From NCBI GenBank assembly GCA_016209275.1, contig JACQWM010000004.1, positions 42,243 to 106,242 of the forward strand: a stretch of 64,000 bases of DNA, written 5' to 3'. Shown piece by piece: positions 1-64,000 of the stretch (positions within the stretch are counted from its first letter, which is position 1; each line of letters begins with the position of its first letter). Source of the stretch: Candidatus Omnitrophota bacterium. Lineage in GTDB: Bacteria; Omnitrophota; Gorgyraeia; Aquiviventales; Aquiviventaceae. A model generated the notes under the pieces. That model worked only from the letters and a program-made list of their open reading frames with translations. It was not told the DNA's origin and made no database searches. Made by a program: the position numbers and the translations under genes.

Positions 1-1061
1 AGCAGGGGTTTGAGCGCGTGCTGCTCTGTCTGGGGTATTTGCCCAAGGTGATCCAGGCGTATTGCGGCGATGGCCAGCGATTCGGGCTGTCGATCGAGTA
101 CAGCGTGTCGGATGTCGAGGATGACACCGGCCGGCGGCTGAAGGTAGCCGCACCTCGCATTGAGCAGTACTTCCTCTTGATGTACTGCGACAACTACTGG
201 CCGCTGCGCTTTGACGCGCTGTGGAAGTCCTATCTCGACACCGGGGCCGAGGCCATGCTCACGGTCTATCGCAACGAGGATGGGTACACGAAAGATAATG
301 TCCGCCTCAGCGAAGATGGCGCAGTGCTGTTCTACGACAAAAATCGGGCGACGCCGAGATTGCAGGGTGTCGATATCGGTTTCGGGCTGTTTCGACGCGA
401 GGCGCTGGAGCTCGTGCCAGATGAAAACGTGTCATTTGAGCGCGTGGTCTACCCAACACTCGTGGCGCGGCGCACGCTCTTCGCGTTTCCTACGTCGCAT
501 CGGTATTACAGTGTCAGTTCGCATGAGCGGCTCGGGTTGACTGAGCGTTTTTTGGCGCGAACGCCCGCGGTAATTCTCGACCGGGACGGGGTGCTGAATG
601 CGCGGCCACCTCAAGGGGAGTATGTCACGTCATGGGCGCAGTGGCGATGGCTGCCGGGGGCTCGTGAGGCGCTACGGCTGTTACACGACGCCGGCTATCA
701 GGTGATCGTGATCTCGAATCAGGCCGGTATTGCGCGCGGGGCGATGCGCGCCGAGGACGTGGAAACGATTCATCGGCGCATGCGCGAGGAGGCGGCCGTC
801 GCTGGCGGGAGCATCGATGCGATCTACTACTGCCCGCATCATTGGGATGACGGGTGTGCGTGCCGCAAGCCGAAACCGGGGATGTTCTTTTCGGCGCAGC
901 GGGAGTTTCACTTGGATTTGAGCCGAACACGGTTCTATGGGGATGATGAGCGCGATGGCCAAGCGGCGAAGGCTGCCGGCTGCCCCTTCACCATGATTTC
1001 AGCGTCGTCGACGCTGCTGGACGCGGTTCGGCAATTACGGGAGGATGCGGTCCATGGCTAA
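1..1061 (+). CDS. Bifunctional sugar-1-phosphate nucleotidyltransferase (HddC-like, 5'-truncated at window edge) fused to D,D-heptose 1,7-bisphosphate phosphatase GmhB (HAD-IIIA)
   Basis: The reading frame is open from nt 3 (QGFERVLLCLGYLP..., nucleotidyltransferase C-terminal region). The C-terminal half has the GmhB signature VILDRDGVLN...VISNQAGIARG...AIYYCPHHWDDGCACRKPKPGM. Stop at 1059-1061. Confidence 0.7.
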   Translation, partial: QGFERVLLCLGYLPKVIQAYCGDGQRFGLSIEYSVSDVEDDTGRRLKVAAPRIEQYFLLMYCDNYWPLRFDALWKSYLDTGAEAMLTVYRNEDGYTKDNVRLSEDGAVLFYDKNRATPRLQGVDIGFGLFRREALELVPDENVSFERVVYPTLVARRTLFAFPTSHRYYSVSSHERLGLTERFLARTPAVILDRDGVLNARPPQGEYVTSWAQWRWLPGAREALRLLHDAGYQVIVISNQAGIARGAMRAEDVETIHRRMREEAAVAGGSIDAIYYCPHHWDDGCACRKPKPGMFFSAQREFHLDLSRTRFYGDDERDGQAAKAAGCPFTMISASSTLLDAVRQLREDAVHG

Positions 1062-2103
1062 GCGCGTGCTGATCACAGGACACAACGGGTATGTCGGCTC
1101 GGTGATGGCGCCGCTGATGCTGGAGGCCGGCTATGAGGTGACGGGGTTTGACACGAACTACTACGCGGAGTGCACCCTCGTGCCTGACGCGGTGCGCGTG
1201 CCCGCCATCCAGAAGGACCTCCGGGATGTGGCGGCCCGCGATCTGGAAGGCTTTGACGCCATCGTGCATTTGGGTGCGCTCAGCAACGACCCGATCGGCA
1301 ACTTAAGCGCCGAGTGGACTGAGCAGATCAATTTCCGCGCGTCAGTCCGCTTGGCCGAGCTGGCCAAACAGGCCGGAGTTCCGCGGTTGCTGTTTTCATC
1401 CTCGTGCATCATGTACGGCATGTCAGAAGCGGCCGTGGTCACGGAAGCCTCCCCCCTGGATCCCAAGACAGAATACGCCAGGTCTAAGGTCAAGGCGGAG
1501 CAGGCCATCTCCCATCTGGCCGATGCGAATTTTTCGCCGGTCTTTTTGCGCAACGGCACGATCTACGGCCTCTCGCCGCGGATGCGGTTCGATACGGTGT
1601 TGAACAACCTCGTGGGGGCGGCGGTGACAACCGGCAAGATCACGCTGCAAAGCGACGGCAAACCGTGGCGGCCGGTGGCCCATGTGGAGGACATTTCGCG
1701 CGCCTTTCTCCATGTGCTGCAAGCTCCCCGCGAGGCGATCCACAATCAGGCGTTTAACAACGGCGAGAACCGGATGAATTATCAGGTGATCGAGATGGCG
1801 CGGATCGTGGCCGAGACCGTGCCGGGCGGCACGGTGGAGTGCTTGGCCGATCCCGGGGCTGATCAGCGCACGTACAAAACTGATTTCGGCAAGTTCGCGA
1901 GGGCATTTCCCGACTTCCAGTTTCGGTGGACGGTACGCGAGGGGGCCAAGGAGCTCTATGAGGCGTGTACCGCCATGAAGCTGACCCGAGAGGATTTCAT
2001 CGATCGGAAGTTCACCCGGCTGAAGTGGCTGCGCTATTTAATGGACAGCGGCCGGCTGGATGGCTCGCTACGCTGGAGAACGGCGGTGGAGGCAACGCGA
2101 TGA
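1054..2103 (+). CDS. NAD-dependent epimerase/dehydratase (extended SDR)
   Basis: N-terminal Rossmann motif VLITGHNGYVGS, ~350 aa. GGAGG sits 9 nt upstream of the ATG at 1054. An alternative ATG at 1045 is possible. Confidence 0.65.
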   Translation: MAKRVLITGHNGYVGSVMAPLMLEAGYEVTGFDTNYYAECTLVPDAVRVPAIQKDLRDVAARDLEGFDAIVHLGALSNDPIGNLSAEWTEQINFRASVRLAELAKQAGVPRLLFSSSCIMYGMSEAAVVTEASPLDPKTEYARSKVKAEQAISHLADANFSPVFLRNGTIYGLSPRMRFDTVLNNLVGAAVTTGKITLQSDGKPWRPVAHVEDISRAFLHVLQAPREAIHNQAFNNGENRMNYQVIEMARIVAETVPGGTVECLADPGADQRTYKTDFGKFARAFPDFQFRWTVREGAKELYEACTAMKLTREDFIDRKFTRLKWLRYLMDSGRLDGSLRWRTAVEATR

Positions 2104-2558
2104 GCCGAACCATACACGACGTGAAGATCATCCCGCTGCGGCAGGTGGTCGATGAGCGGGGCAAGATCATGCACATGCTCAAGGCGACTGACCCGCATTT
2201 CATCCGCTTCGGCGAGATCTATTTTTCATGCGCGTGGCCTGGGGCGATTAAGGCCTGGCACATCCACACATCCATGACGCTGCATAACGCGGTGATCTCG
2301 GGCCGGGCGAAACTCGTGATGTACGACGGCCGCAAAGGCTCGCCGAGCTACGGCACGATCCAGGAGGTCTTTCTCGGGGAAGACAACTACGTGCTGGTGC
2401 AAATTCCGCCCGGCATTACGAACGGGTATAAGGCGTACGGCGATCGGCTGGTCATCCTGGCGAATTGCGCCACCGAGCCGCATCGGCCCGAAGAGATTGT
2501 GCGCATCGATCCGTTCACGACGGAGATTCCCTACGACTGGGGGCTGCGGCATGGCTGA
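2100..2558 (+). CDS. RmlC-like cupin sugar 3,5-epimerase / ketoisomerase
   Basis: ~150 aa cupin fold (GEIYFSCAWPGAIKAWHIH...). The ATG overlaps the upstream TGA. Confidence 0.55.
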   Translation: MSRTIHDVKIIPLRQVVDERGKIMHMLKATDPHFIRFGEIYFSCAWPGAIKAWHIHTSMTLHNAVISGRAKLVMYDGRKGSPSYGTIQEVFLGEDNYVLVQIPPGITNGYKAYGDRLVILANCATEPHRPEEIVRIDPFTTEIPYDWGLRHG

Positions 2559-3618
2559 GCTTGTGAATGCGGAGTGCGGAGTGCGGAACGCGGAGTTCGT
2601 TGAGCACTACGCCACAAATCGACGGCCGCGATTAATCGTCACGCGCACACCGCTGCGTATTAGCTTTGCCGGCGGCGGAACGGATTTGCCGGATTTTTAT
2701 GCGCGCGAAGATGGCGCCGTGCTGAGCACGACGATTAACCACTACTTGTACGTGACGGTCAAGCCGCACGGGCGCTTGTTCAACGAAGGCTTTCGCCTCA
2801 ACTATTCCGAGACGGAGCATGTGGAGCGCTTGGATGAGGTGAAGAACCACATCGCCCGCGAATGCCTGAGGTTTTTGCGGATTGATCCGCCGCTGTACAT
2901 CAGCACGATCGCCGACGTGCCGGAGTTTTCCGGCTTAGGCTCCTCCAGCAGTTTCGCGGTCGGCCTGCTGCAAGCGCTCCATGCGCTTCGCGGCGAGCGG
3001 ATTGCCGCCGGACCGCTGGCCGAGGAAGCGGCTCATATTGAAATCGAGGTGCTGCGCCGGCCGATCGGCAAGCAGGATCACTACGCGGCCGCCTTCGGCG
3101 GCGTGAATGTGTTTTACTTTAAGGCCGACGGCCGGGTGACGGTGGAATCCCAGCACGTCGCCGAGGGGGTCTTGGATGAGATGTTTGCGCATTTACTGAT
3201 GTTTTGGACCGGCATCCGCCGGGATGCCAGCACGATCCTGAGCCTGCAGCAACAGCGGACCGAAACGAATCGTGAGTATTTGCAGCAGATGCGCGAGCAT
3301 GCGCGGCAGCTCCAAGCGCTCTTGCGCAACGGGTTTGACCCGGAGCGCTTTGGGCGCATCCTGGACGCCTCGTGGCATCTGAAGCGGCAGTTGACGAGCA
3401 ACATGACGAACGCGCGCATCGAAACGTGGTATCAGCGCGCCAAGCAGGCCGGGGCGTCGGGCGGCAAGATCTGCGGGGCCGGCGGCGGCGGCTTCCTCTT
3501 ATTCACCGCGCCACCGCAGCGGCAAGAGGCGGTCAGAGCCGCACTGGCCGATCTCACCGAGGTGCCGATTCGCTACGAGGCGCACGGCTCTCGGGTGCTG
3601 CTGCCCTCGATGGAGTAG
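2551..3618 (+). CDS. hddA: GHMP-family sugar kinase, D-glycero-D-manno-heptose 7-phosphate kinase (HddA-like)
   Basis: RTPLRISFAGGGTD, GLGSSSSFAVGLL and GGKICGAGGGGFLLF GHMP motifs. Start uncertain (an unusual ~35-aa N-terminal leader). Confidence 0.7.
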   Translation: MAELVNAECGVRNAEFVEHYATNRRPRLIVTRTPLRISFAGGGTDLPDFYAREDGAVLSTTINHYLYVTVKPHGRLFNEGFRLNYSETEHVERLDEVKNHIARECLRFLRIDPPLYISTIADVPEFSGLGSSSSFAVGLLQALHALRGERIAAGPLAEEAAHIEIEVLRRPIGKQDHYAAAFGGVNVFYFKADGRVTVESQHVAEGVLDEMFAHLLMFWTGIRRDASTILSLQQQRTETNREYLQQMREHARQLQALLRNGFDPERFGRILDASWHLKRQLTSNMTNARIETWYQRAKQAGASGGKICGAGGGGFLLFTAPPQRQEAVRAALADLTEVPIRYEAHGSRVLLPSME

Positions 3619-3621
3619 ACG

Positions 3622-4602
3622 ATGACCCAACGCATTTTGATCACCGGGGCCACCGGGATGATCGGCGCGGCCTTCATCCGGCGCGCGCTGGCGGATGGCC
3701 ATGAGGTGACCGTGATGGTCCGCCGCGAATCAAATCGTTTGCGGCTGATTGAGGTCGAATCGTCGCTGCGCTTGCACGACGGTGATGTCACCGATGCGCA
3801 GAGTGTTGCGAACGCTGTTGACGCGGCGCGTCCTGAGGTGGTCGTGCATTTGGCGAGCAGCTCGTTTAATCCTCCGACGATCAGCGCGCAGACGCATTGG
3901 GACGCGATCGGCAAGGGAACCCTGATCATGCTGGAGATCCTCCGATCATGGCCGCAGACGCGGTTCGTCATGACCGGCTCCGCCGCGGCGTACGGCAGTG
4001 GTGCCAGGCTCACCGAGACCCAACCGCTGCGGCCAGCCACCGCGCTCGGCGCGGCCAAAGCGACGGCGAGTATATGGATGCACACCTATGCTCGGCTCTA
4101 CGGGATCCAGGCTGTTGAGCTGAGACTGTTCATGCCGTATGGCCCGTGGGAGCATCCGCGACGGTTGATTCCGCAGACCATCCTCTCTGCGCTCGCCGGA
4201 GAAGAGCTCCGGACCACTGACGGCAGGCAGCAGCGGGATCTGGTGTATGTTGACGATGTGGTGGACGCACTCCTCTTGGCGGCCACGCGGCCGGTCGCCG
4301 CCGGGTCGGTTTTCAACATCGGCTCAGGGATCGGCACGCGGGTGCGCGATGTGGTCGACCGGATTCTTACGCTGATGGGCGATCCGGTGAACGTGATCCG
4401 AGGCGCCTTGCCGACGCGGCCGGATGAAATCCTTGAGATGTCGGCGGATATCACGGCGGCCAAAAGGAAACTCGGATGGCAGCCGCGCATCGGATTAGAC
4501 GAAGGACTGCGCCGGACGATCGCGTGGGTCACGGATCATCGCGAGCTCTTAGAGCACCTGGCACAGCCGCAAGCACCGATCGCCGCCGGCGGCGAACGAT
4601 GA
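3622..4602 (+). CDS. NAD-dependent epimerase/dehydratase (extended SDR)
   Basis: ILITGATGMIGAAF Rossmann motif. ~326 aa. Confidence 0.7.
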   Translation: MTQRILITGATGMIGAAFIRRALADGHEVTVMVRRESNRLRLIEVESSLRLHDGDVTDAQSVANAVDAARPEVVVHLASSSFNPPTISAQTHWDAIGKGTLIMLEILRSWPQTRFVMTGSAAAYGSGARLTETQPLRPATALGAAKATASIWMHTYARLYGIQAVELRLFMPYGPWEHPRRLIPQTILSALAGEELRTTDGRQQRDLVYVDDVVDALLLAATRPVAAGSVFNIGSGIGTRVRDVVDRILTLMGDPVNVIRGALPTRPDEILEMSADITAAKRKLGWQPRIGLDEGLRRTIAWVTDHRELLEHLAQPQAPIAAGGER

Positions 4603-5891
4603 CGGCGTGCGTGGTGTGCGAGTCAACGCGGGTGGAAGCATTTCTCGATTTTGGCACGACCGCATTGGCCAATAAATTTTTGACGAAGGAAGAATTATCG
4701 CGGGCGGAGCCTGCGTTTCCGTTACGCGTCGGGTTTTGTCATGGCTGCACGCATGTGCAGCTGATGGAGCGCGTCGCCCCCCGCGACATGTTCACTGACT
4801 ATCTGTATGTGTCATCGGCGTCGGAGACGCTGACGGCGCATCTCTTCGAACTCAGCGATGTCGTCGCACGGCGATTCCGCCTGGGCGCGGGCGACCTTGT
4901 CGTCGACATCGGCTGCAATGACGGCACGCTGTTGCGGGGATTCCAGCGCCACGGGGTGAAGACGCTCGGGGTGGATCCAGCCAAAAATCTTGCAGCACTA
5001 GCTGCGGAAAGCGGAATGGAGCGATTCGTGGGATTTTTTAATAGCCAAACCGCCACGCAGATCGCGCAGCGGTGGGGTCGAGCCTCAGCCATCACCGCCA
5101 CCAATACGTTCCCGCATGTTCCCGAGCTGCGTGATTTCATGGAGGGCATTCGCACCGCGTTAGCCCCCGGCGGGGTCTTTGTCATCGAAGCGCATTACCT
5201 GCTGGATCTGCTGGAGCAGGCAGCGTTCGATACCATCTATCACGAACACGTGTCGTACTGGGCCCTCGCACCCATGATGGGCCTCTTTGAGCGCTGCGGC
5301 ATGCAGGTCGTGGATGTCGAGCGGCTTCCGATCCATCATGGACAATTGCGTGTCTTCGTGCAGCGAACGGGTGAAGGGCGTGTGCAGCCGAGCGTTGCTC
5401 GACAGCTTGACGTCGAGCGGAGTGCTGGTTTGGATCGGTTGGCCACCTTCCGGGCGTTTGCCGATCGCACGCAGCAGATCAAGCGGCAGCTGAAGGAGCG
5501 GTTGAGGCAGCTGCGCGCCGAGAGCAAGCGCGTGGCCGGCTATGGGGCGCCGGCGAAAGGCAGCACGTTGTTAGGGTTTCTTGAGTTGGGACCGCAAGAG
5601 ATCGACTACATCGTGGATCGAAGCCCCCTCAAGCAGGGCCGGTTCACGCCCGGCTCGCACATTCCAATCGTGCCGGCAGAGCGCTTGCTTGAGGATCAGC
5701 CCGATGTGGTGGTCGTGCTCGCCTGGAATTTTCTCGACGAAATTATGGATCAGCAACAGGAATATCTGCGGCGTGGGGGGACATTTCTTCTTCCTGTGCC
5801 TGAGGTTCGCCTCATTACAGCCGAAAGCTCGCGCTTTCGGCATTCCGCGGCGACCCCGATGGTCACCGCTTCACGAGGAGAGGGTGCATGA
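4599..5891 (+). CDS. NDP-hexose C-methyltransferase (TylCIII-like class I SAM MTase with N-terminal Zn-ribbon)
   Basis: N-terminal CxxC...CxxC (ACVVCES...CHGCTH), SAM motif VVDIGCNDGTLL, and a C-terminal C-methyltransferase-type domain. ATGA overlap with the upstream gene. Confidence 0.6.
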   Translation: MTACVVCESTRVEAFLDFGTTALANKFLTKEELSRAEPAFPLRVGFCHGCTHVQLMERVAPRDMFTDYLYVSSASETLTAHLFELSDVVARRFRLGAGDLVVDIGCNDGTLLRGFQRHGVKTLGVDPAKNLAALAAESGMERFVGFFNSQTATQIAQRWGRASAITATNTFPHVPELRDFMEGIRTALAPGGVFVIEAHYLLDLLEQAAFDTIYHEHVSYWALAPMMGLFERCGMQVVDVERLPIHHGQLRVFVQRTGEGRVQPSVARQLDVERSAGLDRLATFRAFADRTQQIKRQLKERLRQLRAESKRVAGYGAPAKGSTLLGFLELGPQEIDYIVDRSPLKQGRFTPGSHIPIVPAERLLEDQPDVVVVLAWNFLDEIMDQQQEYLRRGGTFLLPVPEVRLITAESSRFRHSAATPMVTASRGEGA

Positions 5892-6892
5892 GCCACGAGT
5901 TGCACGTCGTTGAAATCAAGCAAATCAACCTGGAGATGGCCGGAGGCTGCAACCTCAAATGCCCCATGTGCCCCCAGTCGTTCGGCCGGGAAAAGGATTT
6001 CTTGAAGCGGCTCCCGCTGGAAGAATTCCGCAAGATCATCGACCAGGCGATTCCCGTGGGGTTGAAGTATGTCAACCTCAGCGGCTCCGGCGAACCGCTG
6101 CTGCACACCGGCTTGGAGGAGGCGGTCCGCTACCTCAATGAGCGGGGCATTACGAGCATGATCTACACCAATGGGATCCGCTTGACTCCAGAGCGTTTTG
6201 AGAGCCTCTGCCAGGCCGGGTTGACGATTTGCAAAGTGTCCTGCCAGGGATGGGATCGGGACAGCTACGCCAAATGGATGTCGATCGACGCGTTTGACCA
6301 AGTGCGGCAGCAGCTCAAAGCGTGCGTCGCACTGCTGAAGACGAAGGGGTATGCCACCTTTCTCCAAACCAACCATCTCGTGCATGACTATGACCAGCGC
6401 GAGCACCAGACCCAGCAGTACGTGACCAATTGGGTCGAGTATCTGGGCGTGCAGGCGGAAATCTGGCTGGAGCACAACTGGTCCGGCCAGTATAAAGACG
6501 CGATCCCTCGGGAGAATATTTTTCAGGACCGGCCCAAGCGCACGTGCGGACGCCCGATGGGCGGGGTCTTGGAGATTCGCGCCGGAGGACTGGGCGGCAA
6601 ATCGGGTGCTGTCGTGCCGTGCCCGTTCGTGCTGGGGCAGGACTCCAAAGCGGTCCTGGGGCATACGCAAGACACGCCCCTCATGGACATCGTCAACGGC
6701 GAGCCGATGCTCGCCTTGCGATCGGCGCACGTGCGCGGAGATTTCGATTCGGTGGACTACTGCCGCAACTGCGATCAATTGCTAGAGGTCAAAGAGTCGC
6801 TGGTGTGGACCAACATCCCCGGTCGCACGTATGGGCCGAGCCGAATCTCAGGAATTAATTACTTAAATCTGTCCGCGGCGCCATCGCCATGA
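5888..6892 (+). CDS. Radical SAM protein (possible SPASM/twitch C-terminal Cys cluster)
   Basis: CNLKCPMC (Cx3Cx2C) near the N-terminus. Additional Cys residues near the C-terminus (CGRPMG...CPFVLG...CRNC). Confidence 0.7.
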   Translation: MSHELHVVEIKQINLEMAGGCNLKCPMCPQSFGREKDFLKRLPLEEFRKIIDQAIPVGLKYVNLSGSGEPLLHTGLEEAVRYLNERGITSMIYTNGIRLTPERFESLCQAGLTICKVSCQGWDRDSYAKWMSIDAFDQVRQQLKACVALLKTKGYATFLQTNHLVHDYDQREHQTQQYVTNWVEYLGVQAEIWLEHNWSGQYKDAIPRENIFQDRPKRTCGRPMGGVLEIRAGGLGGKSGAVVPCPFVLGQDSKAVLGHTQDTPLMDIVNGEPMLALRSAHVRGDFDSVDYCRNCDQLLEVKESLVWTNIPGRTYGPSRISGINYLNLSAAPSP

Positions 6893-7458
6893 CGGGTCTT
6901 GCCTTCCCAACGACAGAGGTTGCGCCGATCACTACGGATCGGTTGGCGCTGCGCATGATATCAGCCGCTGATGTGACGCCGGTGTATGTTGCGTCGATGA
7001 ACGATCCTGAGGTGGTGGGGTTGACCGAGGCGCGGCACGTGGTGTGGGACCATCAGCGGGTGGCGCAGTTCATTGAGCGATCCAACGTTGAAGGGGTGTC
7101 AACTTTGGTGGGGATCTTCCTGAAAGACACCGGACGCCATATCGGCAATCTGCGGTTGTTCAATTTCCATCCCGTGCATCGGCGGGCGGAGCTGAGCTTC
7201 GTCATTTTTGACAAGACCCAATGGTCGAAAGGCTATGCCACAGAGGCGGTCGGCGCGCTCTGCCGCTACGCGTTTGAGACGATGCGTTTGCACCGCATCC
7301 ACGCGGACTATTACGCGACCAACCACGCCTCAGCCCGGTTGTTCCAGAAGGCGGGGTTCCAGGTCGAGGGCGTCTATCGAGGACATTTCTTCGCTGACGG
7401 ACGATATGTGGATTCCATTCGAGTGGCAACACTGAATCCGACTGAGCAGCGCATATGA
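6889..7458 (+). CDS. GNAT-family N-acetyltransferase
   Basis: RimL/RimJ-like motif pattern (HRAELSFVIFD...GYATEAV...ARLFQKAGF). 189 aa. Confidence 0.65.
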   Translation: MTGLAFPTTEVAPITTDRLALRMISAADVTPVYVASMNDPEVVGLTEARHVVWDHQRVAQFIERSNVEGVSTLVGIFLKDTGRHIGNLRLFNFHPVHRRAELSFVIFDKTQWSKGYATEAVGALCRYAFETMRLHRIHADYYATNHASARLFQKAGFQVEGVYRGHFFADGRYVDSIRVATLNPTEQRI

Positions 7459-11870: not shown

Positions 11871-11871
11871 C

Positions 11872-15661: not shown

Positions 15662-15666
15662 GCGAA

Positions 15667-55539: not shown

Positions 55540-55581
55540 TTGAGTTGCAAGTGAAGAGCGGTTTCCATACAATTGATGCAG

Positions 55582-55598: not shown

Positions 55599-55603
55599 TC
55601 ATC

Positions 55604-56242: not shown

Positions 56243-57003
56243 GGGTGAAGCGACGGCGGATTCCGAAGGCGCTGGTGGTGATGGGGGTCGGCCTCGGCGC
56301 GGTTTGTCTGCTGATCGCCCCGGTCGCCTCGACGCGGCAAGGGGTGAATTTCCAGGTGTCCCAGCACCGCATCCCTCCGTATGTGAAAGCGATCGATTTC
56401 CTCCATCGGCACTACGCCTATCAGCGCCTGGCACGGGAGATCACCGAGGGCAAGACGACCGATGACGCCCGAGTGCTCGCGGTCTTCAATTGGACGCGGG
56501 AGCATATCCAGCCGATGCCAAAGGGCTGGCCGGTCATCGATGACCACATCCTCAACATCATCATCCGAGGCTATGGCCTCGGCGATCAGATGGCGGATGT
56601 CTTCACCACACTCTCCACGTACGCTGGCGTTCCCGCGTTCTGGAAAGATTTGCGCGCGAGCGACACTCCGGGAGTGCTGGTGCTGTCGTTTGCCAAGATC
56701 GATGGCCAGTGGGTGATCGTCGACGTGGCGGATGGGTTGATCTTCCGTATGCCGGATGGCTCCTTGGCGGATGCCGCCGCACTCGTGGAGAACCCGCCCG
56801 TGCTGAAAACCGTGGTGCAAGCGCGCACCCGCAGCGGCATCGAGTACTGGCGTTACCTTGAAACGATGCGGCCGTTTTCCGTTCCGAACACGCTGCGCGC
56901 GCAGCAGCAGATGCCCGGGCCGCGCCTATGGTTTGAGCTCCGGCGCGCGCTGCATCTGGCCGGCGCGTATGACCAAACACGGTGGGCGCTCCATGCCCGG
57001 TGA
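56239..57003 (+). CDS. Hypothetical membrane-anchored/exported protein
   Basis: N-terminal signal-anchor (ALVVMGVGLGAVCLLIAPVAS). No recognised catalytic motif. Confidence 0.35.
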   Translation: MRVKRRRIPKALVVMGVGLGAVCLLIAPVASTRQGVNFQVSQHRIPPYVKAIDFLHRHYAYQRLAREITEGKTTDDARVLAVFNWTREHIQPMPKGWPVIDDHILNIIIRGYGLGDQMADVFTTLSTYAGVPAFWKDLRASDTPGVLVLSFAKIDGQWVIVDVADGLIFRMPDGSLADAAALVENPPVLKTVVQARTRSGIEYWRYLETMRPFSVPNTLRAQQQMPGPRLWFELRRALHLAGAYDQTRWALHAR

Positions 57004-58036
57004 TCCATCGGCCCTGGCCATGCCTGTCTCCGCCGCGGCGTTTAGCGCATTTCGGATCGGATTCCACCCGGCGGATCAGGTGAGGGTGCTTGAGTATTGG
57101 CGTGAAATTTTTAATTCGCAACAGTGGGTGGAAGGCCAGTACACCAAGCGCTTCGAGGAGTTGTGGGCCGCGTGGAATGCGCTGCCGGCGGTGGCGACCT
57201 CAAGCTGGGGCGGGGCTGCGCTGGCCGCCTTGGACTATTTCAAGGTTCGCGGGAAAACCGTGCTATGCCCTACGAATACGTTCATGGCAACCCCGCTGTC
57301 GGTCATCCATGCCGGCGGGACGGTCGTCTTCGGCGACTGCAACCGAGACGATTTGTGCCTCAGCTACGAGGCGGTGGCGCAGGCGGCCAAGGCGCAGGAG
57401 CTTGCGGCCGTGTGGCTCGTGCACATCGGCGGCCATCTGGCTTTTGACACGCCGCGCATCGCGGAGTTCTGCCGGGCCAACGGCATCATCCTGCTTGAAG
57501 ATTGCGCCCACGCGCATGGGGCCTCATGGCACGGCCAGCGGCCTGGCAGCTTCGGCGATGCCGGGGTCTATTCATTTTACGGCACCAAAACGATTTCGAC
57601 CGGCGAGGGCGGCATGCTGGTCTCAAAACATCCTGGCCTCATCGAGTTCGCGAAAGGATTCCGCAATTACGGCAAGCCAACCTACCAGGTGTCGGGCCTG
57701 AACTACCGGATGTCGGAGTTCACCGCGGCCCTCGGCGTGGTCCAGGTTGAGCGCATGGAGGAGATCGTGGCCTGGAAGCGCGCGGTGGCGGCCAGGGATC
57801 TTGATCCTGTGTTTGCGCAGCGCGTGCGGCTGCCTGAGGGTATGCAGTCCGGCTACTACAAATACATCGTGTTTGAGCCGATTGCGCGCTCCAGCGGCAA
57901 GGTTTACGACACGCTCTGCCACACCATCATGGGGCAGGGCGGATCATTTCCCAACGCCGAGTGGATCGCGCAGCATCACTGGTGCGTTCCGCTCTATTAC
58001 CATCCTGAGCTGGACAACAATGGAGTGGATGCATGA
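56993..58036 (+). CDS. DegT-family PLP-dependent sugar aminotransferase/dehydratase (third copy)
   Basis: Lys-region SFYGTKTISTGEGGM. Start uncertain. Confidence 0.65.
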   Translation: MPGDPSALAMPVSAAAFSAFRIGFHPADQVRVLEYWREIFNSQQWVEGQYTKRFEELWAAWNALPAVATSSWGGAALAALDYFKVRGKTVLCPTNTFMATPLSVIHAGGTVVFGDCNRDDLCLSYEAVAQAAKAQELAAVWLVHIGGHLAFDTPRIAEFCRANGIILLEDCAHAHGASWHGQRPGSFGDAGVYSFYGTKTISTGEGGMLVSKHPGLIEFAKGFRNYGKPTYQVSGLNYRMSEFTAALGVVQVERMEEIVAWKRAVAARDLDPVFAQRVRLPEGMQSGYYKYIVFEPIARSSGKVYDTLCHTIMGQGGSFPNAEWIAQHHWCVPLYYHPELDNNGVDA

Positions 58037-58974
58037 GAGTTCTCGTGACAGGCGGCGCAGGCTTTATTGGATCGCATGTGGTGGATCGTTTGGTGGCGCA
58101 CGGGGTGGTGCCGCTCATCTTCGATCAGCAGCGCTCCACGTATCACCCGTCGGTCGAGCACTGCATCGGCAGCATCCTGGACGTGGAGGCCCTGCGGGTG
58201 GCGATGTTCGGTGTGCAAGCGATCATCCATCTGGCGGCGGTTGCGGATGTGAAAGATGTATTCGAGGATCCTTCCTACGCCGAAATGGTGAACACGCGCG
58301 GCACGGCCTGCGTGCTCGAGGCGGTCCGGCGCTCCAAGGTGATGCGCATCGTCTATGGCAGCACGACTTGGGTGTATAGCGACGTGCCCCAGCAGGAGGT
58401 GGACGAAGACACGCCATTGGCCGCGCCCTCGCATCTGTACACCGCCACGAAAATCGCGTCGGAATATTACTGCCAGGCGTACGCAAAGCTCTACGGCATC
58501 GAGTACACGATCCTGCGCTTCGGCATTCCCTATGGCCCTCGCGCGCGCGATGGGGCGGTGATCCCGATCTTCGTCAACAAAGCGCTTCAGGGCGAGCCGC
58601 TGACGATCGCCGGCGACGGCTCGCAGTTCCGCAAGTTCGTCTATGTCGAGGACCTGGCTGAGGGCAACGCGCTGGCGTTAGCTCCAGCCGCGAAGAATCG
58701 CATCTATAACCTCGATGGAGCTGAGCCGGTGACGATCAAGCAGATCGCCGAGACGGTGCAGCGCGTCCTCGGCGGCGCGCGCATTGAGTATGTGGCGGCC
58801 CGGCCTGGGGATTTCAGCGGCAAGCGGGTGCTCAGCGCGCGGGCGAAACAGGAGCTTGGATGGGAGCCGACGACGCCATTTGAAGAGGGCGTGCGGCGGT
58901 ACGTGCAGTGGGTCAAGCACCGGAAGGACCAGCGGGATGCGGAAGAAGCCCGGCTCGACCCGGCCTTGCGGTAG
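58033..58974 (+). CDS. NAD-dependent sugar epimerase (GalE-like)
   Basis: VLVTGGAGFIGSHVV Rossmann motif. YTATK catalytic motif. Confidence 0.75.
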   Translation: MRVLVTGGAGFIGSHVVDRLVAHGVVPLIFDQQRSTYHPSVEHCIGSILDVEALRVAMFGVQAIIHLAAVADVKDVFEDPSYAEMVNTRGTACVLEAVRRSKVMRIVYGSTTWVYSDVPQQEVDEDTPLAAPSHLYTATKIASEYYCQAYAKLYGIEYTILRFGIPYGPRARDGAVIPIFVNKALQGEPLTIAGDGSQFRKFVYVEDLAEGNALALAPAAKNRIYNLDGAEPVTIKQIAETVQRVLGGARIEYVAARPGDFSGKRVLSARAKQELGWEPTTPFEEGVRRYVQWVKHRKDQRDAEEARLDPALR

Positions 58975-58992
58975 CGCGGCGATGCGCTGGGC

Positions 58993-59715
58993 ATGAGTCG
59001 GATCAGCGTGATCCTCTGCTGTTATAACGGAGCCCCCTGGGTCGGCGAGGCGCTGGGGAGCCTTGACCGACAAACCATGCCGCGCGATGGCTACGAAGTG
59101 GTCTTCGTCAATGACGGGTCCACCGACGCGACAGAACAGGCGATGGCCCCGTATCGTGCGCGCAGCAACGTGCAGTACCTGGCCCATGAGCGCAATCAAG
59201 GGCTCGTGGCCTCCTGCAACCAGGCGCTTGAGGCCTCACACGGCGAGTATATCGTCCGCCTGGATGCGGACGACACGTTTGAGCCGCCGCTGCTTGAACG
59301 GATGTCGACGCTGCTGCGTGAGGGCCAGACCGATCTGGTGTATTCCGACCGCTACGAGTGGTCCGAGAAGCGCCGGGCGCGCCGTCTCATCACATTAGGG
59401 AGCTTTAATCTTTTTGATCTGACGGCCGTCGGGACCATGATGCGGCGCGATCTCGTGTTGAGCGTCGGGGGGTACCGCGAACTCTTCTGGGAAGAATACG
59501 ACCTCTACCTGCGGTATTTGCTGCGCAGCGGCCGGGCGGCGTCCCGGGTGCCTGAGCCGCTGTTTACGTACCGCCGCCACCACGGCAGCATGACCAGTGA
59601 TCCTGCGGCGGTGCGCCGTGGATGGGAAGAGTTGCAGCGAGTGTGGCCGGCAAGCATGCTGGAACGGTTTGGGCGGTGTCCGGATTCAACAGCCTGCGCA
59701 GAGGCCGCGTTCTGA
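58993..59715 (+). CDS. GT2-family glycosyltransferase
   Basis: ISVILCCYNGAPWV...VNDGSTD...DADD motifs. Confidence 0.7.
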   Translation: MSRISVILCCYNGAPWVGEALGSLDRQTMPRDGYEVVFVNDGSTDATEQAMAPYRARSNVQYLAHERNQGLVASCNQALEASHGEYIVRLDADDTFEPPLLERMSTLLREGQTDLVYSDRYEWSEKRRARRLITLGSFNLFDLTAVGTMMRRDLVLSVGGYRELFWEEYDLYLRYLLRSGRAASRVPEPLFTYRRHHGSMTSDPAAVRRGWEELQRVWPASMLERFGRCPDSTACAEAAF

Positions 59716-60524
59716 TGGCGCCGCGGACCACCATCATTGCGGAGATCGGCGAGAACCATGTCGGCGACTGGGATCGCGCGCGGCAGATGATCTGTGCTGC
59801 CGCCGCCACCGGCGCGGACATCGTCAAATTTCAGTCCTATCGCAGCGCGGATGTGGCGGATGACGATCCGGAAAAGACGTGGTTTGGGCGCGTGGAAGTC
59901 CCGGATGCCGTGCACCGGCAGCTCGCCCAGGCGGCTCGAGCCGCCGGGGTGGGATTCTTGAGCGCGCCGTTCACCGTTGAGCGGGCGCAGTTTCTGTGCG
60001 AGCAGATGGGATTGCGGGCCGTCAAGATCGCCTCCTCCGAGCTGTTGAACAGGCGGTTGTTGGACTATGTGAGCACGCAGGCGGAGACGGTGTATCTGTC
60101 GACAGGGATGGCGACGCTGGATGAGGTGCGCGAGGCGGTCACCCGCCTGCGCGCCGTCCCGCGCGTGATCATCATGCATTGCGTGACCCAGTACCCGCTG
60201 AAGGATGAGGACGCCAACTTGCGGGCCATCGAAGCGCTGCGGCAGGCGTTCCCTGAGCATTCGATCGGATACTCTGATCACACCATCGGGATCACGGCGC
60301 CGCTGATCGCCGTGGCGTTGGGCGCTGCCGTGATCGAGAAGCATTTCACCATGGATAAATCGCTGCCAGGCACGGATCATGCGCTCTCTGTCACCCCGGA
60401 GGAGCTCAGGGCCATGGTGGACGGCATTCGCCGGGTGGAGCGGCTCTTGGGGGTGGCCGAGAAGCAGCCGGTGGCGGCGGAGCTGGCCATTCGCGACGCG
60501 GTCCGTGCGAGGTTTCCGAAATGA
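59715..60524 (+). CDS. NeuB-family ulosonate synthase lacking the SAF domain (SpsE/PseI-like)
   Basis: TTIIAEIGENHVGD...DIVKFQSY signature. Only ~269 aa, with no C-terminal SAF domain. Confidence 0.65.
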   Translation: MAPRTTIIAEIGENHVGDWDRARQMICAAAATGADIVKFQSYRSADVADDDPEKTWFGRVEVPDAVHRQLAQAARAAGVGFLSAPFTVERAQFLCEQMGLRAVKIASSELLNRRLLDYVSTQAETVYLSTGMATLDEVREAVTRLRAVPRVIIMHCVTQYPLKDEDANLRAIEALRQAFPEHSIGYSDHTIGITAPLIAVALGAAVIEKHFTMDKSLPGTDHALSVTPEELRAMVDGIRRVERLLGVAEKQPVAAELAIRDAVRARFPK

Positions 60525-62620
60525 GCCAAGAGCCGATGCGCATCTTCCTCGCCGATCTCACGCACGACGGCACCGGCAAGCTCGCCGTCGACATGATGCC
60601 CTACAACATCGGCCTCATCGCCTCGTATGCCAAGCAGCAGCTTGGCGATGCGGTGCAGATTTCGCTCTTCAAATATGTGCAACCGCTGCTTGAGGCGCTG
60701 AAGTGCCAACCGCCGCACATCCTCGGATGCAGCAATTACGTGTGGAACAGCCACCTCTCGGAATTCGCCTGCGAGCACGCGAAGCAGATCAACCCCGCGA
60801 TCGTCACGGTGCAAGGGGGCACGAACTATCCGTTTGACGCGCCAAGCCAGCTGGCGTTTCTGTCAACGCGGCCAGCCACGGATCTCCACGTGTACTATGA
60901 AGGCGAGGCCGCGTTTGTGAATCTTCTCAAGGCGTTTCAATCGTCTCCTGATGTCCGCGAGCTGCGCGAGCGTCCGATCGACGGATGCCAGTCCATCTCG
61001 CCGACCACCGGCCGGTTGGTGTCCGGAGCCGCGGTGGCGCGCATCAGCGCGTTGGGGGAGATCCCCTCGCCCTATGCCACCGGCCTCTTGGATCAATTTT
61101 TCGATGGGCGGCTCACTCCCATTGTCGAAACGAATCGCGGGTGCCCCTTCACGTGCAACTTCTGCAACGCCGGCAACAGCTATTTTTCGAAGGTCAACAT
61201 GTTCCCGCTGGAGCATCTGGAGGCGGAGTTTTCCTACATCGCGCCGCGGATGGCGGCCTCAGGCGTGGGCCTGCTCGTGCTGGCCGACAACAATTTCGGC
61301 ATGTATCCTCGCGATGCGGAGCTCTGCCGGATCCTCAAGCGGCTGCAGGAGCGGCACGGCTGGCCCCTGCGCATCCTCTCGACCACCGGCAAGAACAGCA
61401 AGGACCGCATCATCAAGGCGACGGAAATCTTAGGGACCAGCATGAGCATCAACATGTCTGTCCAATCAATGAACCAGGCGGTGCTGGAGAACATCCGGCG
61501 TCAGAATGTGAGTCTTGAGGCGTACCAGCAGATCAACGAGGTGCTGGTGCGACAGGGCCGCGTGCAGAAAGCCGAGATGATCGTGCCGCTGCCTGGCGAA
61601 ACGCTCGCGTCGTTCATGCAGGGTCTGAAGGAGCTCATGGACACCAAGGCCCAGCTCATCTACTCCTATACGCTGCAACTGCTCTACGGCACGGAGTACA
61701 AGGACGCGGCGTACCGAGCCCAGTGGGGCTACCAGGGCAAGTGGCGGCTCGTGCCGCTGAATTTCGGCGCCTACGACGGCACGAAGATCTTTGACGTGGA
61801 AGAAGTGGCGGTGGCGTCCAAGAGCCTGTCATTCGACGACTATGTGAAGATCCGCGTCTTCGCGCTGCTGACGGAGACGATGTACAACGATTATCAATGC
61901 TGGGAATTCGTGAAATATCTCAATGCGTGGGGGATTTCGCCGTTTGATTGGCTGGCGAACACGGCGGAGCACCTGCACCAGGCCCCCGAGTCCGTTCAAC
62001 AGATCGTGCAAAGTTTCATCCGTGATACCCAAGAAGAGCTGTGGGATTCAGAAGAGGCCTTATTCGAGTTTTATCGCCGGCCGGAACATTATGCCCGGCT
62101 GCTCAAGGGCGAGGCCGGGCATAATGTCGTGTTTACCCATAAAGGCCTGATGATCAGCCGGCATATTGAGGACTGGGTGCCGTTCATCGCCCGCATGTGC
62201 CGCGAACTCGTCCAGGAGCGCGTGCCCACCGCGAACCCTGAGGCCGTGAGGAAGGAGGTTCACGCGCTTGAGCAGTTCCTGCTGGCGAAATTCGAAGGGG
62301 TCTTGCGCAAGGATGGAAACGTTGACGACGTGTTCGTGGAGCTTGCCTACGACATCCCTCAATGGCTCAGCGACAGCAGCGGCAAACCCCTCGGCGCCTT
62401 TGCGCGCGAAACGCCGATGGCCTTCCGCGTGTACTTTACGGATGCTCAACGCAAAGAGCGTGAACAATGCCTGAGACTCTACGGCTTTGATCGCATCGGC
62501 CTGGCCAGGATTTTCGCGCGCAATCCATCGCTGAACACCTTGTATCGCGCCGTGGAGCCTGCGGGGCAGGCGGTCACGATTCCCCAGCGCCCTGAGTGGC
62601 GGCCGGCATGGAACAATTAA
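60521..62620 (+). CDS. Cobalamin-binding-domain radical SAM enzyme (class B, putative methyltransferase)
   Basis: N-terminal B12-binding-like region, a CPFTCNFC (Cx3Cx2C) cluster and a long C-terminal extension. 699 aa. Confidence 0.7.
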   Translation: MSQEPMRIFLADLTHDGTGKLAVDMMPYNIGLIASYAKQQLGDAVQISLFKYVQPLLEALKCQPPHILGCSNYVWNSHLSEFACEHAKQINPAIVTVQGGTNYPFDAPSQLAFLSTRPATDLHVYYEGEAAFVNLLKAFQSSPDVRELRERPIDGCQSISPTTGRLVSGAAVARISALGEIPSPYATGLLDQFFDGRLTPIVETNRGCPFTCNFCNAGNSYFSKVNMFPLEHLEAEFSYIAPRMAASGVGLLVLADNNFGMYPRDAELCRILKRLQERHGWPLRILSTTGKNSKDRIIKATEILGTSMSINMSVQSMNQAVLENIRRQNVSLEAYQQINEVLVRQGRVQKAEMIVPLPGETLASFMQGLKELMDTKAQLIYSYTLQLLYGTEYKDAAYRAQWGYQGKWRLVPLNFGAYDGTKIFDVEEVAVASKSLSFDDYVKIRVFALLTETMYNDYQCWEFVKYLNAWGISPFDWLANTAEHLHQAPESVQQIVQSFIRDTQEELWDSEEALFEFYRRPEHYARLLKGEAGHNVVFTHKGLMISRHIEDWVPFIARMCRELVQERVPTANPEAVRKEVHALEQFLLAKFEGVLRKDGNVDDVFVELAYDIPQWLSDSSGKPLGAFARETPMAFRVYFTDAQRKEREQCLRLYGFDRIGLARIFARNPSLNTLYRAVEPAGQAVTIPQRPEWRPAWNN

Positions 62621-63765
62621 TGGAGCGTTCGGGCCGCGTGCGCGTGTTGGCGGCTGCGCAGGAAGCGGGCGCAGCCAACGCGCTGGTTCCGGTCATCACC
62701 ACGTTGCGCCGAAGCCTGTCTGCCGAGGTGGTCGTCGCCGCCTGCGCGCAAGCGGCAGAGGTCTTTGCGGGTGCCGGGCTCTCGCCACGCCAGGCGGACG
62801 CGATCGAACCGTTGATGCGCGAGGCATCGCCCAACGTCCTGCTATTGGGCACATCGTGGGGATGGACGCTCGATAAACGCTTGCTGTCGCTCGGCAATGA
62901 GTGCTTGCTGCCGTCGGTCTCGGTGGTGGATCATTGGACCCATTACCGAGAGCGGTTTCTTGATCCGAGATCGAATCGGCTCGTGCTTCCCACGAGAATC
63001 GCGGTGCCGGATCAGGTAGCACTCGCCCAAGCCGCGCGCGCAGGTCTGCCTGAGGATCTGATGATCGCGACCGGGCACCCGCATCTTGAAACCATGATCA
63101 ACGCCTTGGAAGCCCCAGGGTGCCAAGCGCGCGCTCGCGAGCTGCGCCGGGCTTGGTGCGAATCGCTCGGCCGATCGCCTGATGGCTCGCGCGTCGTCCT
63201 GTTCGTATCAGAGCCGTTTTCTCAATTTCATGGGCCAGGCAGCCCGTCCCCGTATGATTTTACTGAGCAAGACGCCCTGGAGGGCGTTGTGGAAGCGATT
63301 GAAACACTCGAGCAGCAGACGCGCGGGCGTCTAGCGCTGGTAGTGAAGCGGCACCCGCGGGAGCAATCGCAACCGCTGCAGTTTGGGTCGCGCGCGAAGC
63401 GTCGCAATCTCTGCGTGGTGTCAGGACAAGAGCCGTCATCTGTTTGCGTCATGGCGGCTGATCTCGTCGTGGGGATGTTGTCGATGGTGTTGCTGGAGGC
63501 GGTGCTCGCCGGCCGGCCGGCGAGCAGCTTCCGGCCGACGCGGACCGCTGCCGAGGCATTTATCGGCTCTGAGCTGGGTCTGGTTGAGTCTGCCTTCTCC
63601 GTTGAGGCGCTGCGGCGATGGCTCAGCGAGGCGTGCAGCGCCGGATCATCCGCCAGAGATCGGATGCGCCAGGCCGCCGCAGGAGTGCTCGCGCATCAGG
63701 GGGCCGCCGCTCGGATCGCCGATCTGGTGATGGAGCTGGCGGTTGAGGCCAGGATGGCGTCATGA
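62608..63765 (+). CDS. Hypothetical protein, capsule-synthesis/GT-B-like (KxHP motif)
   Basis: VVKRHPRE motif and overall resemblance to the C-terminal halves of the 28130 and 30208 proteins. Confidence 0.35.
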   Translation: MEQLMERSGRVRVLAAAQEAGAANALVPVITTLRRSLSAEVVVAACAQAAEVFAGAGLSPRQADAIEPLMREASPNVLLLGTSWGWTLDKRLLSLGNECLLPSVSVVDHWTHYRERFLDPRSNRLVLPTRIAVPDQVALAQAARAGLPEDLMIATGHPHLETMINALEAPGCQARARELRRAWCESLGRSPDGSRVVLFVSEPFSQFHGPGSPSPYDFTEQDALEGVVEAIETLEQQTRGRLALVVKRHPREQSQPLQFGSRAKRRNLCVVSGQEPSSVCVMAADLVVGMLSMVLLEAVLAGRPASSFRPTRTAAEAFIGSELGLVESAFSVEALRRWLSEACSAGSSARDRMRQAAAGVLAHQGAAARIADLVMELAVEARMAS

Positions 63766-64000
63766 ATATCGTGGCGACGGTTCAAGCGCGGATGGGGTCC
63801 TCGCGCCTTCCGGGAAAAGTGCTGAAGCCGATTGTCGGAAAACCGATGCTGCAACTGCAGATTGAGCGGATTCAGCAGAGCCGATTGATCGATCAGGTTG
63901 TGATTGCCACCTCAGTGGAGCAGGGCAACGATCCGATTGAACGGCTAGCCCATACGCTTGGCGTCGGATGTTTCCGGGGCAGCGAAGAGGACTGCTTATC
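63762..64000 (+). CDS. Ulosonate cytidylyltransferase (PseF/SpsF-like), 3'-truncated at window edge
   Basis: IVATVQARMGSSRLPGKVL N-terminal motif. The ORF runs off the end of the window. Confidence 0.65.
   Translation, partial: MNIVATVQARMGSSRLPGKVLKPIVGKPMLQLQIERIQQSRLIDQVVIATSVEQGNDPIERLAHTLGVGCFRGSEEDCL

Follow-up and report, generated by a model that had tools for sequence, protein, structure and literature searches.

The 64,000-nt stretch of Candidatus Omnitrophota DNA analyzed here (contig JACQWM010000004.1, positions 42,243 to 106,242 of the forward strand; hereafter the window) is tightly packed with genes for sugar synthesis, modification and transfer. The source bacterium is very small, lives in groundwater and has not been cultivated. 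We lean towards reading the window as the central part of a gene array, at least 65 kb long and conserved in the phylum but modular, that would make an elaborate acidic surface glycan by a lipid-linked, partly periplasmic route. A preliminary description based on the sequence had proposed a single 64-kb super-operon. Layout and gene content bore out one very large, co-directional and tightly packed locus for an elaborate glycan, but the one-operon part of that proposal was not supported, since the real intergenic gaps fall at breakpoints and the 64-bp gap contains a promoter-like site.

Gene organization of the locus

Our gene model placed 61 of 61 genes on the + strand, where they covered 99.6% of the 64,000 bases; 59 are complete, g1 being cut at its 5' end and g60 at its 3' end. 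Start codons were picked from overlap and Shine-Dalgarno context. Overlaps accounted for 48 of the 60 junctions, 24 of them of the ATGA and 10 of the TGATG/TAATG type. A further 10 junctions were gaps of 1-18 bp, and only two gaps were larger, one of 111 bp (41719-41829) and one of 64 bp (55540-55603). The preliminary description had likewise assigned every credible gene, about 60 in all, to the + strand, had found mostly ATGA or TGATG start/stop overlaps and had counted just two gaps above 60 bp, including the second one given here. The tight overlaps suggest translationally coupled blocks.

Stop-to-stop open reading frames (ORFs) with a coding-type GC position bias tiled the + strand; the long minus-strand ORFs were antisense to + strand genes and had the high-GC1, lower-GC3 pattern of shadow ORFs. 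The GC content was 61-65% along the whole window, with a positive + strand GC skew. A run of 61 same-strand genes would arise by chance with p of about 1.5e-6 to 2e-3, for an assumed same-strand probability of 0.8-0.9 per neighbouring pair. Scans for tRNA genes and Rfam families found none in the window, and Pfam detected no transposase or integrase there.

Both ends had been described as truncated and the locus as larger than the window, which agrees with what we found. The products of g29, g30 and g50 are 100% identical to proteins of a Candidatus Omnitrophica MAG (metagenome-assembled genome), encoded on a contig of 162,391 bp. Pieces identical to the window also occur in short Logan assemblies of the runs SRR12113385 and SRR12113383, and at the right end a Logan contig (L001) adds two + strand genes, up to window coordinate ~65,518: the complete g60 cytidylyltransferase gene, followed by a gene of the GFO family. 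At the left end, the 5'-truncated g1 has a full-length homolog of 399 aa (NTP_transferase plus HAD) in the metagenome contig L008.

Pathways for activated sugars

Functions were assigned from Pfam and NCBIfam models against their cutoffs and are family-level calls; all gene coordinates refer to the + strand. On these matches, g18-g28 appear to form a complete legionaminic acid (Leg) set of the GDP-GlcNAc route with an acetamidino branch. Genes g18-g22 (16644-21137) encode a LegF-like CMP-nonulosonate synthetase, a short-chain dehydrogenase/reductase (SDR), a NeuB/LegI-type synthase with an SAF domain, a NeuC/LegG hydrolysing 2-epimerase and a NeuD/PglD-type N-acetyltransferase (LegH). The last three passed their cutoffs (g20, NeuB_NnaB, 452.5 bits against 399.65; g21, NeuC, 433.9 against 235.9; g22, NeuD, 207.2 against 160.8), and these models cannot separate Leg enzymes from those for N-acetylneuraminic acid (Neu5Ac). 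We assign the set to Leg rather than Neu5Ac because of the LegB and LegC genes and the CBS-nucleotidyltransferase g26. The product of g18 matched Pfam CTP_transf_3 (71.7; cutoff 22.6) and scored 139 bits with the NCBIfam PseF model, whose cutoff is 205.7.

The other end of the set, g26-g28 (24891-28133), encodes a PtmE-like CBS-nucleotidyltransferase (Pfam CBS plus NTP_transferase), a LegB-like 4,6-dehydratase and a LegC-family aminotransferase. The LegC model TIGR04181 was passed by g28 (480.6 bits; cutoff 420), and g27 came just under the cutoff of 475 for LegB TIGR04180 (450.8 bits), by far its best-scoring family. Between these blocks, g23-g25 (21134-24877) would constitute the branch that forms the acetamidino group; they encode an unknown protein, a HisF-HisH fusion (Pfam His_biosynth plus GATase) and a WbuX N-acetyl sugar amidotransferase (356.7 bits; cutoff 203.2).

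A second pathway, composed of g1-g9, g33 and the GmhB domain of g30, probably yields a GDP-heptose with extensive tailoring. The SIS isomerase (g33, Pfam SIS_2), GHMP kinase (g4), HAD phosphatase and nucleotidyltransferase of the GDP-D-glycero-D-manno-heptose pathway were all found at the family level. In g1 (3-1061), an HddC-like sugar-1-phosphate nucleotidyltransferase, with matches on residues 2-158, is fused to a GmhB-like heptose bisphosphate phosphatase (Pfam HAD families; GmhB PRK08942, 164 bits). The GmhB-like domains at the C-terminus of g1 and the N-terminus of g30 scored 164-166 bits, slightly below the cutoff of 178. Tailoring of the GDP-heptose is the putative role of g2-g5 (1054-4602), which encode an SDR epimerase/dehydratase, an RmlC-like cupin epimerase, a GHMP (HddA-like) kinase and a 4,6-dehydratase-like SDR. 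These are followed by g6-g9 (4599-8618), encoding a C-methyltransferase for NDP-sugars (Methyltransf_14/13; Methyltransf_14 at 2.5e-55), a radical S-adenosylmethionine (SAM)/SPASM protein (Radical_SAM+SPASM), a GNAT acetyltransferase (Acetyltransf_3) and a DegT aminotransferase (1e-112).

Two more blocks point to further acidic sugars. Genes g41-g46 (41830-46798) encode a methyltransferase, an HpcH/GarL-type pyruvate aldolase, two SDRs, a KdsB-type cytidylyltransferase and a D-2-hydroxyacid dehydrogenase, and may together lead to a 2-keto-3-deoxy sugar acid activated with CMP; g45 passed the KdsB subfamily model NF003952 (208.5 bits; cutoff 193), and the aldolase g42 stayed under the equivalog cutoffs. 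In g54-g60 (56993-64000) we found genes for a short DegT aminotransferase, an SDR dehydratase, a family 2 glycosyltransferase (GT2), a short NeuB without SAF, a KedN5-like B12 radical-SAM C-methyltransferase, the unknown g59 and the 3'-truncated cytidylyltransferase. This block is syntenic with a locus of a Planctomycetia metagenome-assembled genome (MAG; L002) at 38-69% identity. The second NeuB, g57 (59715-60524), has 269 aa and lacks the C-terminal SAF domain, and the DegT protein g54 (56993-58036) is short at its C-terminus; we do not regard them as pseudogenes, because both short forms are kept in the Planctomycetia locus (99% and 94% coverage).

In total, the window encodes 8 methyltransferases, 3 cytidylyltransferases, 2 NeuB-type synthases, 3 aminotransferases and 1 carbamoyltransferase, together with 8 glycosyltransferase proteins comprising 9 glycosyltransferase domains. 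Pfam and NCBIfam thus support the heptose, nonulosonate, amidination, carbamoylation and C- and O-methylation functions proposed earlier. The earlier count of 5-6 glycosyltransferases was too low; it had overlooked g29 and g50, both assigned from predicted structure.

Conservation and modularity

The order of g20-g51 is kept in an Omnitrophica MAG, CG11 (GCA_002796105.1, PCVX01000026.1, and a JGI copy), at 50-80% amino-acid identity. Strands and gene orders of relatives were taken from the databases' own gene calls, because antisense shadow ORFs in high-GC DNA make an ORF-based strand census unreliable. From NeuB to AsnB, the CG11 counterparts are g20-g33, g38-g39, g42-g46, g48 with a g47-like gene, g50 (fused there to a GT2 domain), g49 and g51, all on one strand except for two small ORFs. 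The identity was 58-73% for g42-g46 and 65% for g51. Missing from CG11 are g40-g41 and the carbamoylation set g34-g37, the latter from between the SIS and transaldolase genes, and the genes past AsnB differ. Two gene fusions are peculiar to the genome of the window: HisF and HisH, fused in g24 (22093-23655), are separate genes in CG11 and in a second Omnitrophica genome (GCA_021735655.1); likewise, the HAD and 520-aa domains joined in g30 (30208-32322) are two separate genes in CG11.

This second genome has a GC content of 36%, and its locus (JAIPGM010000003.1, 32206-54260) carries HisF, HisH, WbuX, PtmE-like, LegB-like and LegC-like genes and then a g29 homolog in the window's local order. 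An order shared by 36%-GC and 62%-GC Omnitrophica indicates deep conservation of the arrangement. A gene resembling dehydroquinate synthase is also present in the low-GC locus. In a further relative (ENA ERZ25766553 contig_3), insertion sequences (rve integrase, DDE transposases) interrupt the locus and FemAB-like acetyltransferase genes are duplicated, which shows that mobile elements can remodel such arrays.

Dozens of metagenome contigs contain the cassette g1-g6/7 in syntenic form, with identities of 55-85%. Its 11 closest relatives (L008, 1-8812; L010, L013, L015, L018, L020, L022, L023, L027, L036 and L043) have an MsbA/ABCB-type ABC exporter immediately upstream of the g1 homolog, usually with a SIS gene, and in L008 co-directional glycan genes extend at least 9 kb further upstream. 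In some cassette relatives, the genes ahead of the cassette additionally include those for a second GHMP kinase, a B12 radical-SAM enzyme, two epimerases and a UbiA-family prenyltransferase. Our scans of genome and metagenome contigs returned no near-identical relative, the best matches being 63% identity for g58 and 79% for g2. Exact-protein matches were limited to short Logan contigs for g3, g58 and g59, and there were none for g2 and g7.

The array might instead be a mosaic pieced together recently from unrelated cassettes that were acquired horizontally, lie together by accident and make several independent products, the outcome that the preliminary description had named as fatal to its proposal. 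The modules do differ in the source of their best matches (unassigned metagenome contigs at 73-85% for g1-g7, the Planctomycetia MAG at up to 69% for g54-g60), and CG11 lacks the carbamoyl module. However, GC content (0.61-0.635) and tetranucleotide usage were uniform over nine modules, more than 30 genes stand in the same order in another Omnitrophica genome, the window contains no transposase, integrase or tRNA gene, and the junctions between modules are mostly overlapping start and stop codons. We therefore consider such a mosaic improbable, and the uniform composition leads us to regard the array as an old backbone that has been conserved and bears exchangeable accessory cassettes, rather than as a recent patchwork. 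A phage or mobile-element origin was also considered and is argued against by the same uniformity and the lack of integrase, transposase and tRNA genes in the window.

Candidate transferases

For the 693-aa product of g29 (28130-30211; locus tag HY737_00845), no relative was found in Pfam, NCBIfam or the PDB sequences, also when its 44-sequence family profile was used. An AlphaFold2 model built on the 44-sequence alignment was confident (predicted local distance difference test score 90.2) and showed a GT-B fold with two Rossmann domains, the C-terminal one being a predicted nucleotide-binding domain; it resembles TagF/WaaA-type CMP/CDP-dependent transferases. In 4 independent loci, namely the window, CG11, the 36%-GC genome GCA_021735655.1 and the ENA contig, the PtmE/LegB/LegC triad has a g29 homolog behind it, either adjacent or a few genes on. 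These features make g29 a candidate CMP-legionaminate (or related CMP/CDP-donor) transferase. An exhaustive profile search recovered 1001 cluster representatives at E<=1e-30, and the family is thus a sizeable uncharacterized one; its profile showed no relationship to the C-terminal domain of g30 or to g59.

The 791-aa product of g50 (51231-53606), is a polytopic GT-C glycosyltransferase with a central tetratricopeptide repeat (TPR) domain, and no other gene in the window encodes a multi-pass membrane protein. About six hydrophobic segments precede the TPR repeats (residues 295-520) and two come after them, eight in total, and the predicted structure showed a GT-C membrane fold. Residue D81, a candidate for the acidic catalytic residue that GT-C enzymes have in the first extracytoplasmic loop, lies within the motif GFWxFxxDSxxY and was invariant across 20 homologs. 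A profile of the membrane domain matched no solved GT-C enzyme among PDB sequences and returned nothing useful beyond the TPR part.

Upstream of g50, g47-g49 (46795-51244) encode a two-domain GT2+GT4 glycosyltransferase, an RmlD-like reductase and a GT4/GT1 glycosyltransferase (Pfam). In five homologs of g50, a GT2 domain is attached at the C-terminus; it shares 33-38% identity with that of g47, whose gene is located three genes upstream of g50. GT-C enzymes use polyprenyl-phosphate-linked donors at the outer side of the membrane, and ArnC/Dpm1-type GT2 enzymes make such donors. Because of the fusions we argue for a relay from GT2 to GT-C, and the predicted fold of g50 points to a polyprenyl-linked, periplasmic step. 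Downstream, g51 (53611-55539) encodes an AsnB-type glutamine amidotransferase (Asn_synthase, 7.6e-111, plus GATase_7) that probably amidates a uronate or ulosonate carboxyl group.

Proposed assembly route and acceptor

In the cytoplasm, g1-g9, g33 and the N-terminal domain of g30 would make a tailored, C-methylated GDP-heptose, g18-g28 would make CMP-legionaminic acid with an acetamidino group, g41-g46 would use the pyruvate aldolase to make a CMP-activated 2-keto-3-deoxy acid, and g54-g60 would make a further methylated NeuB-type product. Decoration would be carried out by the carbamoyltransferase, the eight methyltransferases, acetyl/acyl transferases and the AsnB-type amidotransferase. Soluble GT-A and GT-B enzymes (g10-g12, g29, g47, g49 and g56) would build the glycan on a polyprenyl phosphate carrier, with g29 adding legionaminate. 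An MsbA/PglK-type ABC exporter would carry the lipid-linked glycan across the inner membrane, and g50 would catalyze a periplasmic transfer from a polyprenyl-phosphate-sugar, a donor probably made by the GT2 domain of g47.

Several observations weigh against this route. None of the 61 products had a Pfam match at E<=1e-5 to Wzx, Wzy, Wzz, WaaL/PglL, an initiating phosphoglycosyltransferase or a transporter, genes that may lie outside the window, and the ABC exporter was seen in relatives only, upstream of the g1 homolog. The g50 protein is not a member of Pfam PMT_2, for which it scored 18.0 bits (E 0.0034) against a cutoff of 26.1. The products of the pathways other than the legionaminate core were assigned from domain families alone. 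Finally, the 36%-GC relative has a weak Wzy_C gene next to GT2/GT4 genes, which would favour an O-antigen.

As the acceptor of the glycan, periplasmic or surface proteins have our tentative preference over lipopolysaccharide (LPS) or another glycolipid, which is the next candidate, because of the TPR domain of g50 and the lack of Wzy and WaaL in the 64 kb; flagellin, one of the targets named in the preliminary description, is the least likely of them and very improbable. A locus of the kind seen in Leptospira rfb, making the O-antigen repeat of LPS (or a capsule), with the Wzy/WaaL or ABC pathway outside the window and g50 decorating in the periplasm, is doubtful but is the most serious competitor of the route proposed above. 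The very large Leptospira glycan loci with their nonulosonate genes set a precedent (PMC13111663, PMC3438082), and the relatives carry an upstream ABC exporter. The variable loci of Omnitrophota genomes have, moreover, been reported to contain LPS/capsule glycosyltransferases (bioRxiv 10.64898/2026.06.07.730766). On the other hand, no ABC-2 (Wzm/Wzt) gene accompanies the missing Wzx, Wzy, Wzz and WaaL in the 64 kb, the relatives' exporter is of the fused MsbA/PglK rather than the Wzm/Wzt type, and the TPR domain of g50 recalls the protein-specific GT-C enzymes TMTC and TMEM260 (PMC7801869, PMC10214176).

Still less probable, indeed very improbable, is an island for O-glycosylation of flagellin (or other cytoplasmic proteins) of the Campylobacter pse/ptm/maf type, in which flagellin receives activated nonulosonates directly, while still in the cytoplasm. 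Such systems need no flippase, which fits the missing Wzx, and the Leg and acetamidino genes (PtmE-like, LegB/C/H/G/I/F-like and amidotransferase) parallel Campylobacter ptm (PMC3958885). However, Pfam detected no Maf (PF01973), FlmG-type, flagellin or pilin product in the window, g50, which has the TPR domain, is membrane-embedded and of the GT-C type, not a soluble FlmG-like glycosyltransferase, and the number of glycosyltransferase domains, 8-9, implies an oligo- or polysaccharide rather than single nonulosonates. The main genomic survey of the Omnitrophota does not mention flagella.

A more specific version of the lipid-linked route is that a surface glycan linked to protein, with as many as three different acidic ulosonic sugars, is made through a g29-family legionaminyl transferase and g50 with its GT2 donor synthase, by a lineage-conserved line of more than 65 kb that takes up 2-7% of the genome. 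We regard this full combination as unlikely. If true, this way of glycosylating proteins would be new for bacteria, and it might serve host-cell attachment or mimicry.

Transcription units

The preliminary description had seen no terminators, and our consensus scan agreed: all 53 terminator-like matches were weak and intragenic, with none (0/53) between genes. Hairpin-plus-T-run sites were more frequent than expected in positions 1-20000 (25, against 13.1 +/- 3.3 in dinucleotide shuffles), mostly on the + strand and all intragenic; the other segments had no such excess, which may be related to codon usage or T-skew.

Nine sigma-70-like sites were found in the window, the single intergenic one being TTGCAA-17-TACAAT (55545-55573, + strand) in the 64-bp gap at 55540-55603; the sigma-70 consensus may not be the one used in Omnitrophota. 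The chance of one of nine matches landing in this gap was p ~0.005. The gap is AT-rich, with 39% GC against 62% for the window, and between the -10 element and the ATG of g52 it contains a perfect palindrome, TGTTCA-N5-TGAACA (55582-55598), extended to GATG...CATC. The palindrome could be an operator for autoregulation of g52, whose predicted winged-helix DNA-binding product may regulate the last block. Synteny with CG11 stops at this gap.

The larger gap, at 41719-41829, is also a module boundary; it contained no terminator and no significant RNA fold. CG11 has ~1.3 kb with two small minus-strand ORFs at this position, and both real gaps thus coincide with breakpoints of synteny or modules. 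RNA folding of both gaps, palindrome included, was no better than that of shuffled sequence. A possible 34-codon ORF, MRGWWGRLWARVRSLFSRKKKTESGAQKNIYPMW (41718-41822), begins at the TGATG stop/start of g40 and occupies most of the 111-bp gap; nothing supports it as a real gene.

Transcription of the whole locus of at least 64 kb from one promoter upstream of the window, as a polycistronic operon with translational coupling, would suit the co-directional genes, the 48 overlapping junctions, the lack of intergenic terminator-like sites and the lack of any Rfam element or tRNA breaking the window. Against it, the only two real gaps lie exactly at synteny and module boundaries, and the AT-rich 64-bp gap precedes a regulator gene and holds the sole intergenic sigma-70-like motif and the palindrome. 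Relatives gain and lose modules independently, which argues for separable units, and promoters inside coding sequences are possible. A single operon is accordingly quite unlikely. Because both real gaps fall at module boundaries, the second with a promoter-like site, several transcription units probably exist, with starts at least at both gaps.

Other genes of the locus

Downstream of the heptose cassette, g10, g11 and g12 (8615-11870) are tandem paralogous genes for TIGR04440-type glycosyltransferases (138-147 bits; cutoff 70) that are 30-48% identical to each other; a comparison of g11 with PDB sequences gave nothing useful. Genes g13-g17 (11872-16668) encode a Methyltransf_24 methyltransferase, a weakly GFO-like protein, a GFO oxidoreductase, a NanM-like sugar O-methyltransferase (g16; TIGR04371, 102 bits, cutoff 44) and another GFO oxidoreductase.

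Between g29 and the carbamoylation module, g30-g33 (30208-34959) encode a GmhB-like HAD domain joined to an unknown domain of ~520 aa, a GFO oxidoreductase, a methyltransferase and the GmhA-like SIS isomerase. The C-terminal family of g30 comprises at least 181 homologs, has no Pfam domain and is sometimes fused to HAD, GT2 or PF01522 domains; comparison of g30 with PDB sequences gave nothing useful outside the HAD part.

The carbamoylation module g34-g37 (34959-39148) consists of genes for a methyltransferase (g34), an SxtJ-like membrane protein (g35; Pfam SxtJ), a weak SGNH/GDSL match (g36), a 53-aa membrane protein and the carbamoyltransferase (37316-39148; Carbam_trans_N, 6.6e-97, and Carbam_trans_C). 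The 53-aa ORF (37155-37316) encodes one hydrophobic helix and fills the apparent gap after 37147, between g36 and the carbamoyltransferase gene; ORF lists with a 100-aa floor miss it. The carbamoyltransferase starts at ATG 37316, where its Pfam match begins. We presume that the 53-aa protein and g35 resemble the small membrane partners of SxtI-type carbamoyltransferases. The module is followed by g38-g40 (39165-41718), which encode a member of the transaldolase/fructose-6-phosphate aldolase (FSA) family with a below-cutoff match to NCBIfam fsa_talC, an FkbM methyltransferase and a GDSL/SGNH esterase-acyltransferase.

At the start of the last block, g52-g53 (55604-57003) encode the winged-helix/MarR-like DNA-binding protein (HTH_24, 1.9e-6) and an unknown protein with a weak transglutaminase-core match.

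Comparison with known systems

The preliminary description had called 64 kb unusually large. The locus is indeed very large, but the rfb locus of Leptospira exceeds 100 kb in some strains (PMC13111663). The two are alike in great size, in many tailoring enzymes, in variable modules attributed to horizontal transfer and in nonulosonate genes (PMC3438082). They differ in that Wzx, Wzy and the initiating WcaJ are encoded inside rfb (PMC13111663) and none of them in these 64 kb, where the GT-C/TPR protein is the sole membrane enzyme. The phyla also differ, and the likeness is one of described features. As in the window, the genes of Leptospira rfb lie nearly all on one strand.

The flagellin glycosylation locus of Campylobacter jejuni/coli shares with the window the GDP-GlcNAc legionaminic route, a CBS-nucleotidyltransferase, equivalents of LegB/C/H/G/I/F and an acetamidino derivative (PMC3958885), and both regions are variable and gene-dense. 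In contrast, the window contains no maf or adjacent flagellin genes and has many more glycosyltransferases, and its heptose, carbamoyl and ulosonate modules are additional. The Campylobacter Maf transferases are cytoplasmic, whereas g50 is a membrane GT-C enzyme.

Tannerella forsythia has a general protein O-glycosylation system in which a nonulosonate-terminated decasaccharide is attached to S-layer and other proteins (PMC5420450, PMC6120980). Like the route proposed here, it yields a complex methylated glycan with Leg or pseudaminic acid, which many glycosyltransferases build on a lipid carrier and which is moved to periplasmic or surface proteins. Its dedicated nonulosonate transferase belongs to an unusual family, as the candidate g29 does. 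A Wzx flippase and another type of oligosaccharyltransferase set the Tannerella system apart.

Among enzymes with known activities, TagF/TarL polymerases and WaaA/KpsC-type Kdo (3-deoxy-D-manno-octulosonate) transferases are GT-B proteins with CDP- or CMP-activated donors; g29 has no detectable sequence similarity to them and differs in its extra N-terminal domains, its length of ~690 aa and the lack of a predicted membrane anchor. For g50, the TPR-bearing GT-C enzymes of eukaryotes are the protein-specific O-mannosyltransferases TMTC1-4 and TMEM260 (PMC7801869, PMC10214176). Compared with these and with the ArnT/PMT enzymes, the TPR domain of g50 sits between transmembrane segments 6 and 7 and is not C-terminal. 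The ArnT/PMT enzymes have GT2 partners (ArnC, Dpm1/Ppm1); g50 differs from them in its ~8 hydrophobic segments and its below-cutoff PMT_2 score.

Bacteria of the Omnitrophota are ultra-small, their genomes are reduced and their lifestyles may depend on hosts. For genomes of 0.86-3.2 Mb (PMC10066038), more than 65 kb given over to a conserved array for sialic-acid-like, heptose and Kdo-like sugars represents a large investment, which suggests that the glycan coat is central to the encounters of these nanobacteria with hosts, prey or phages. The two genomic surveys of the phylum that we searched do not describe glycan pathways of this kind. The locus also offers testable contexts for the g29 GT-B family with its legionaminate genes, for the C-terminal family of g30 and for g50 with its GT2 fusion partners. 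Huge modular glycan loci on one strand are already known from Leptospira, Campylobacter and others, and our finding extends this theme; what the window adds to it is the host phylum, the size relative to such small genomes, three stacked ulosonic-acid modules and a genomic context for the g29, g30 C-terminal and g50 families.

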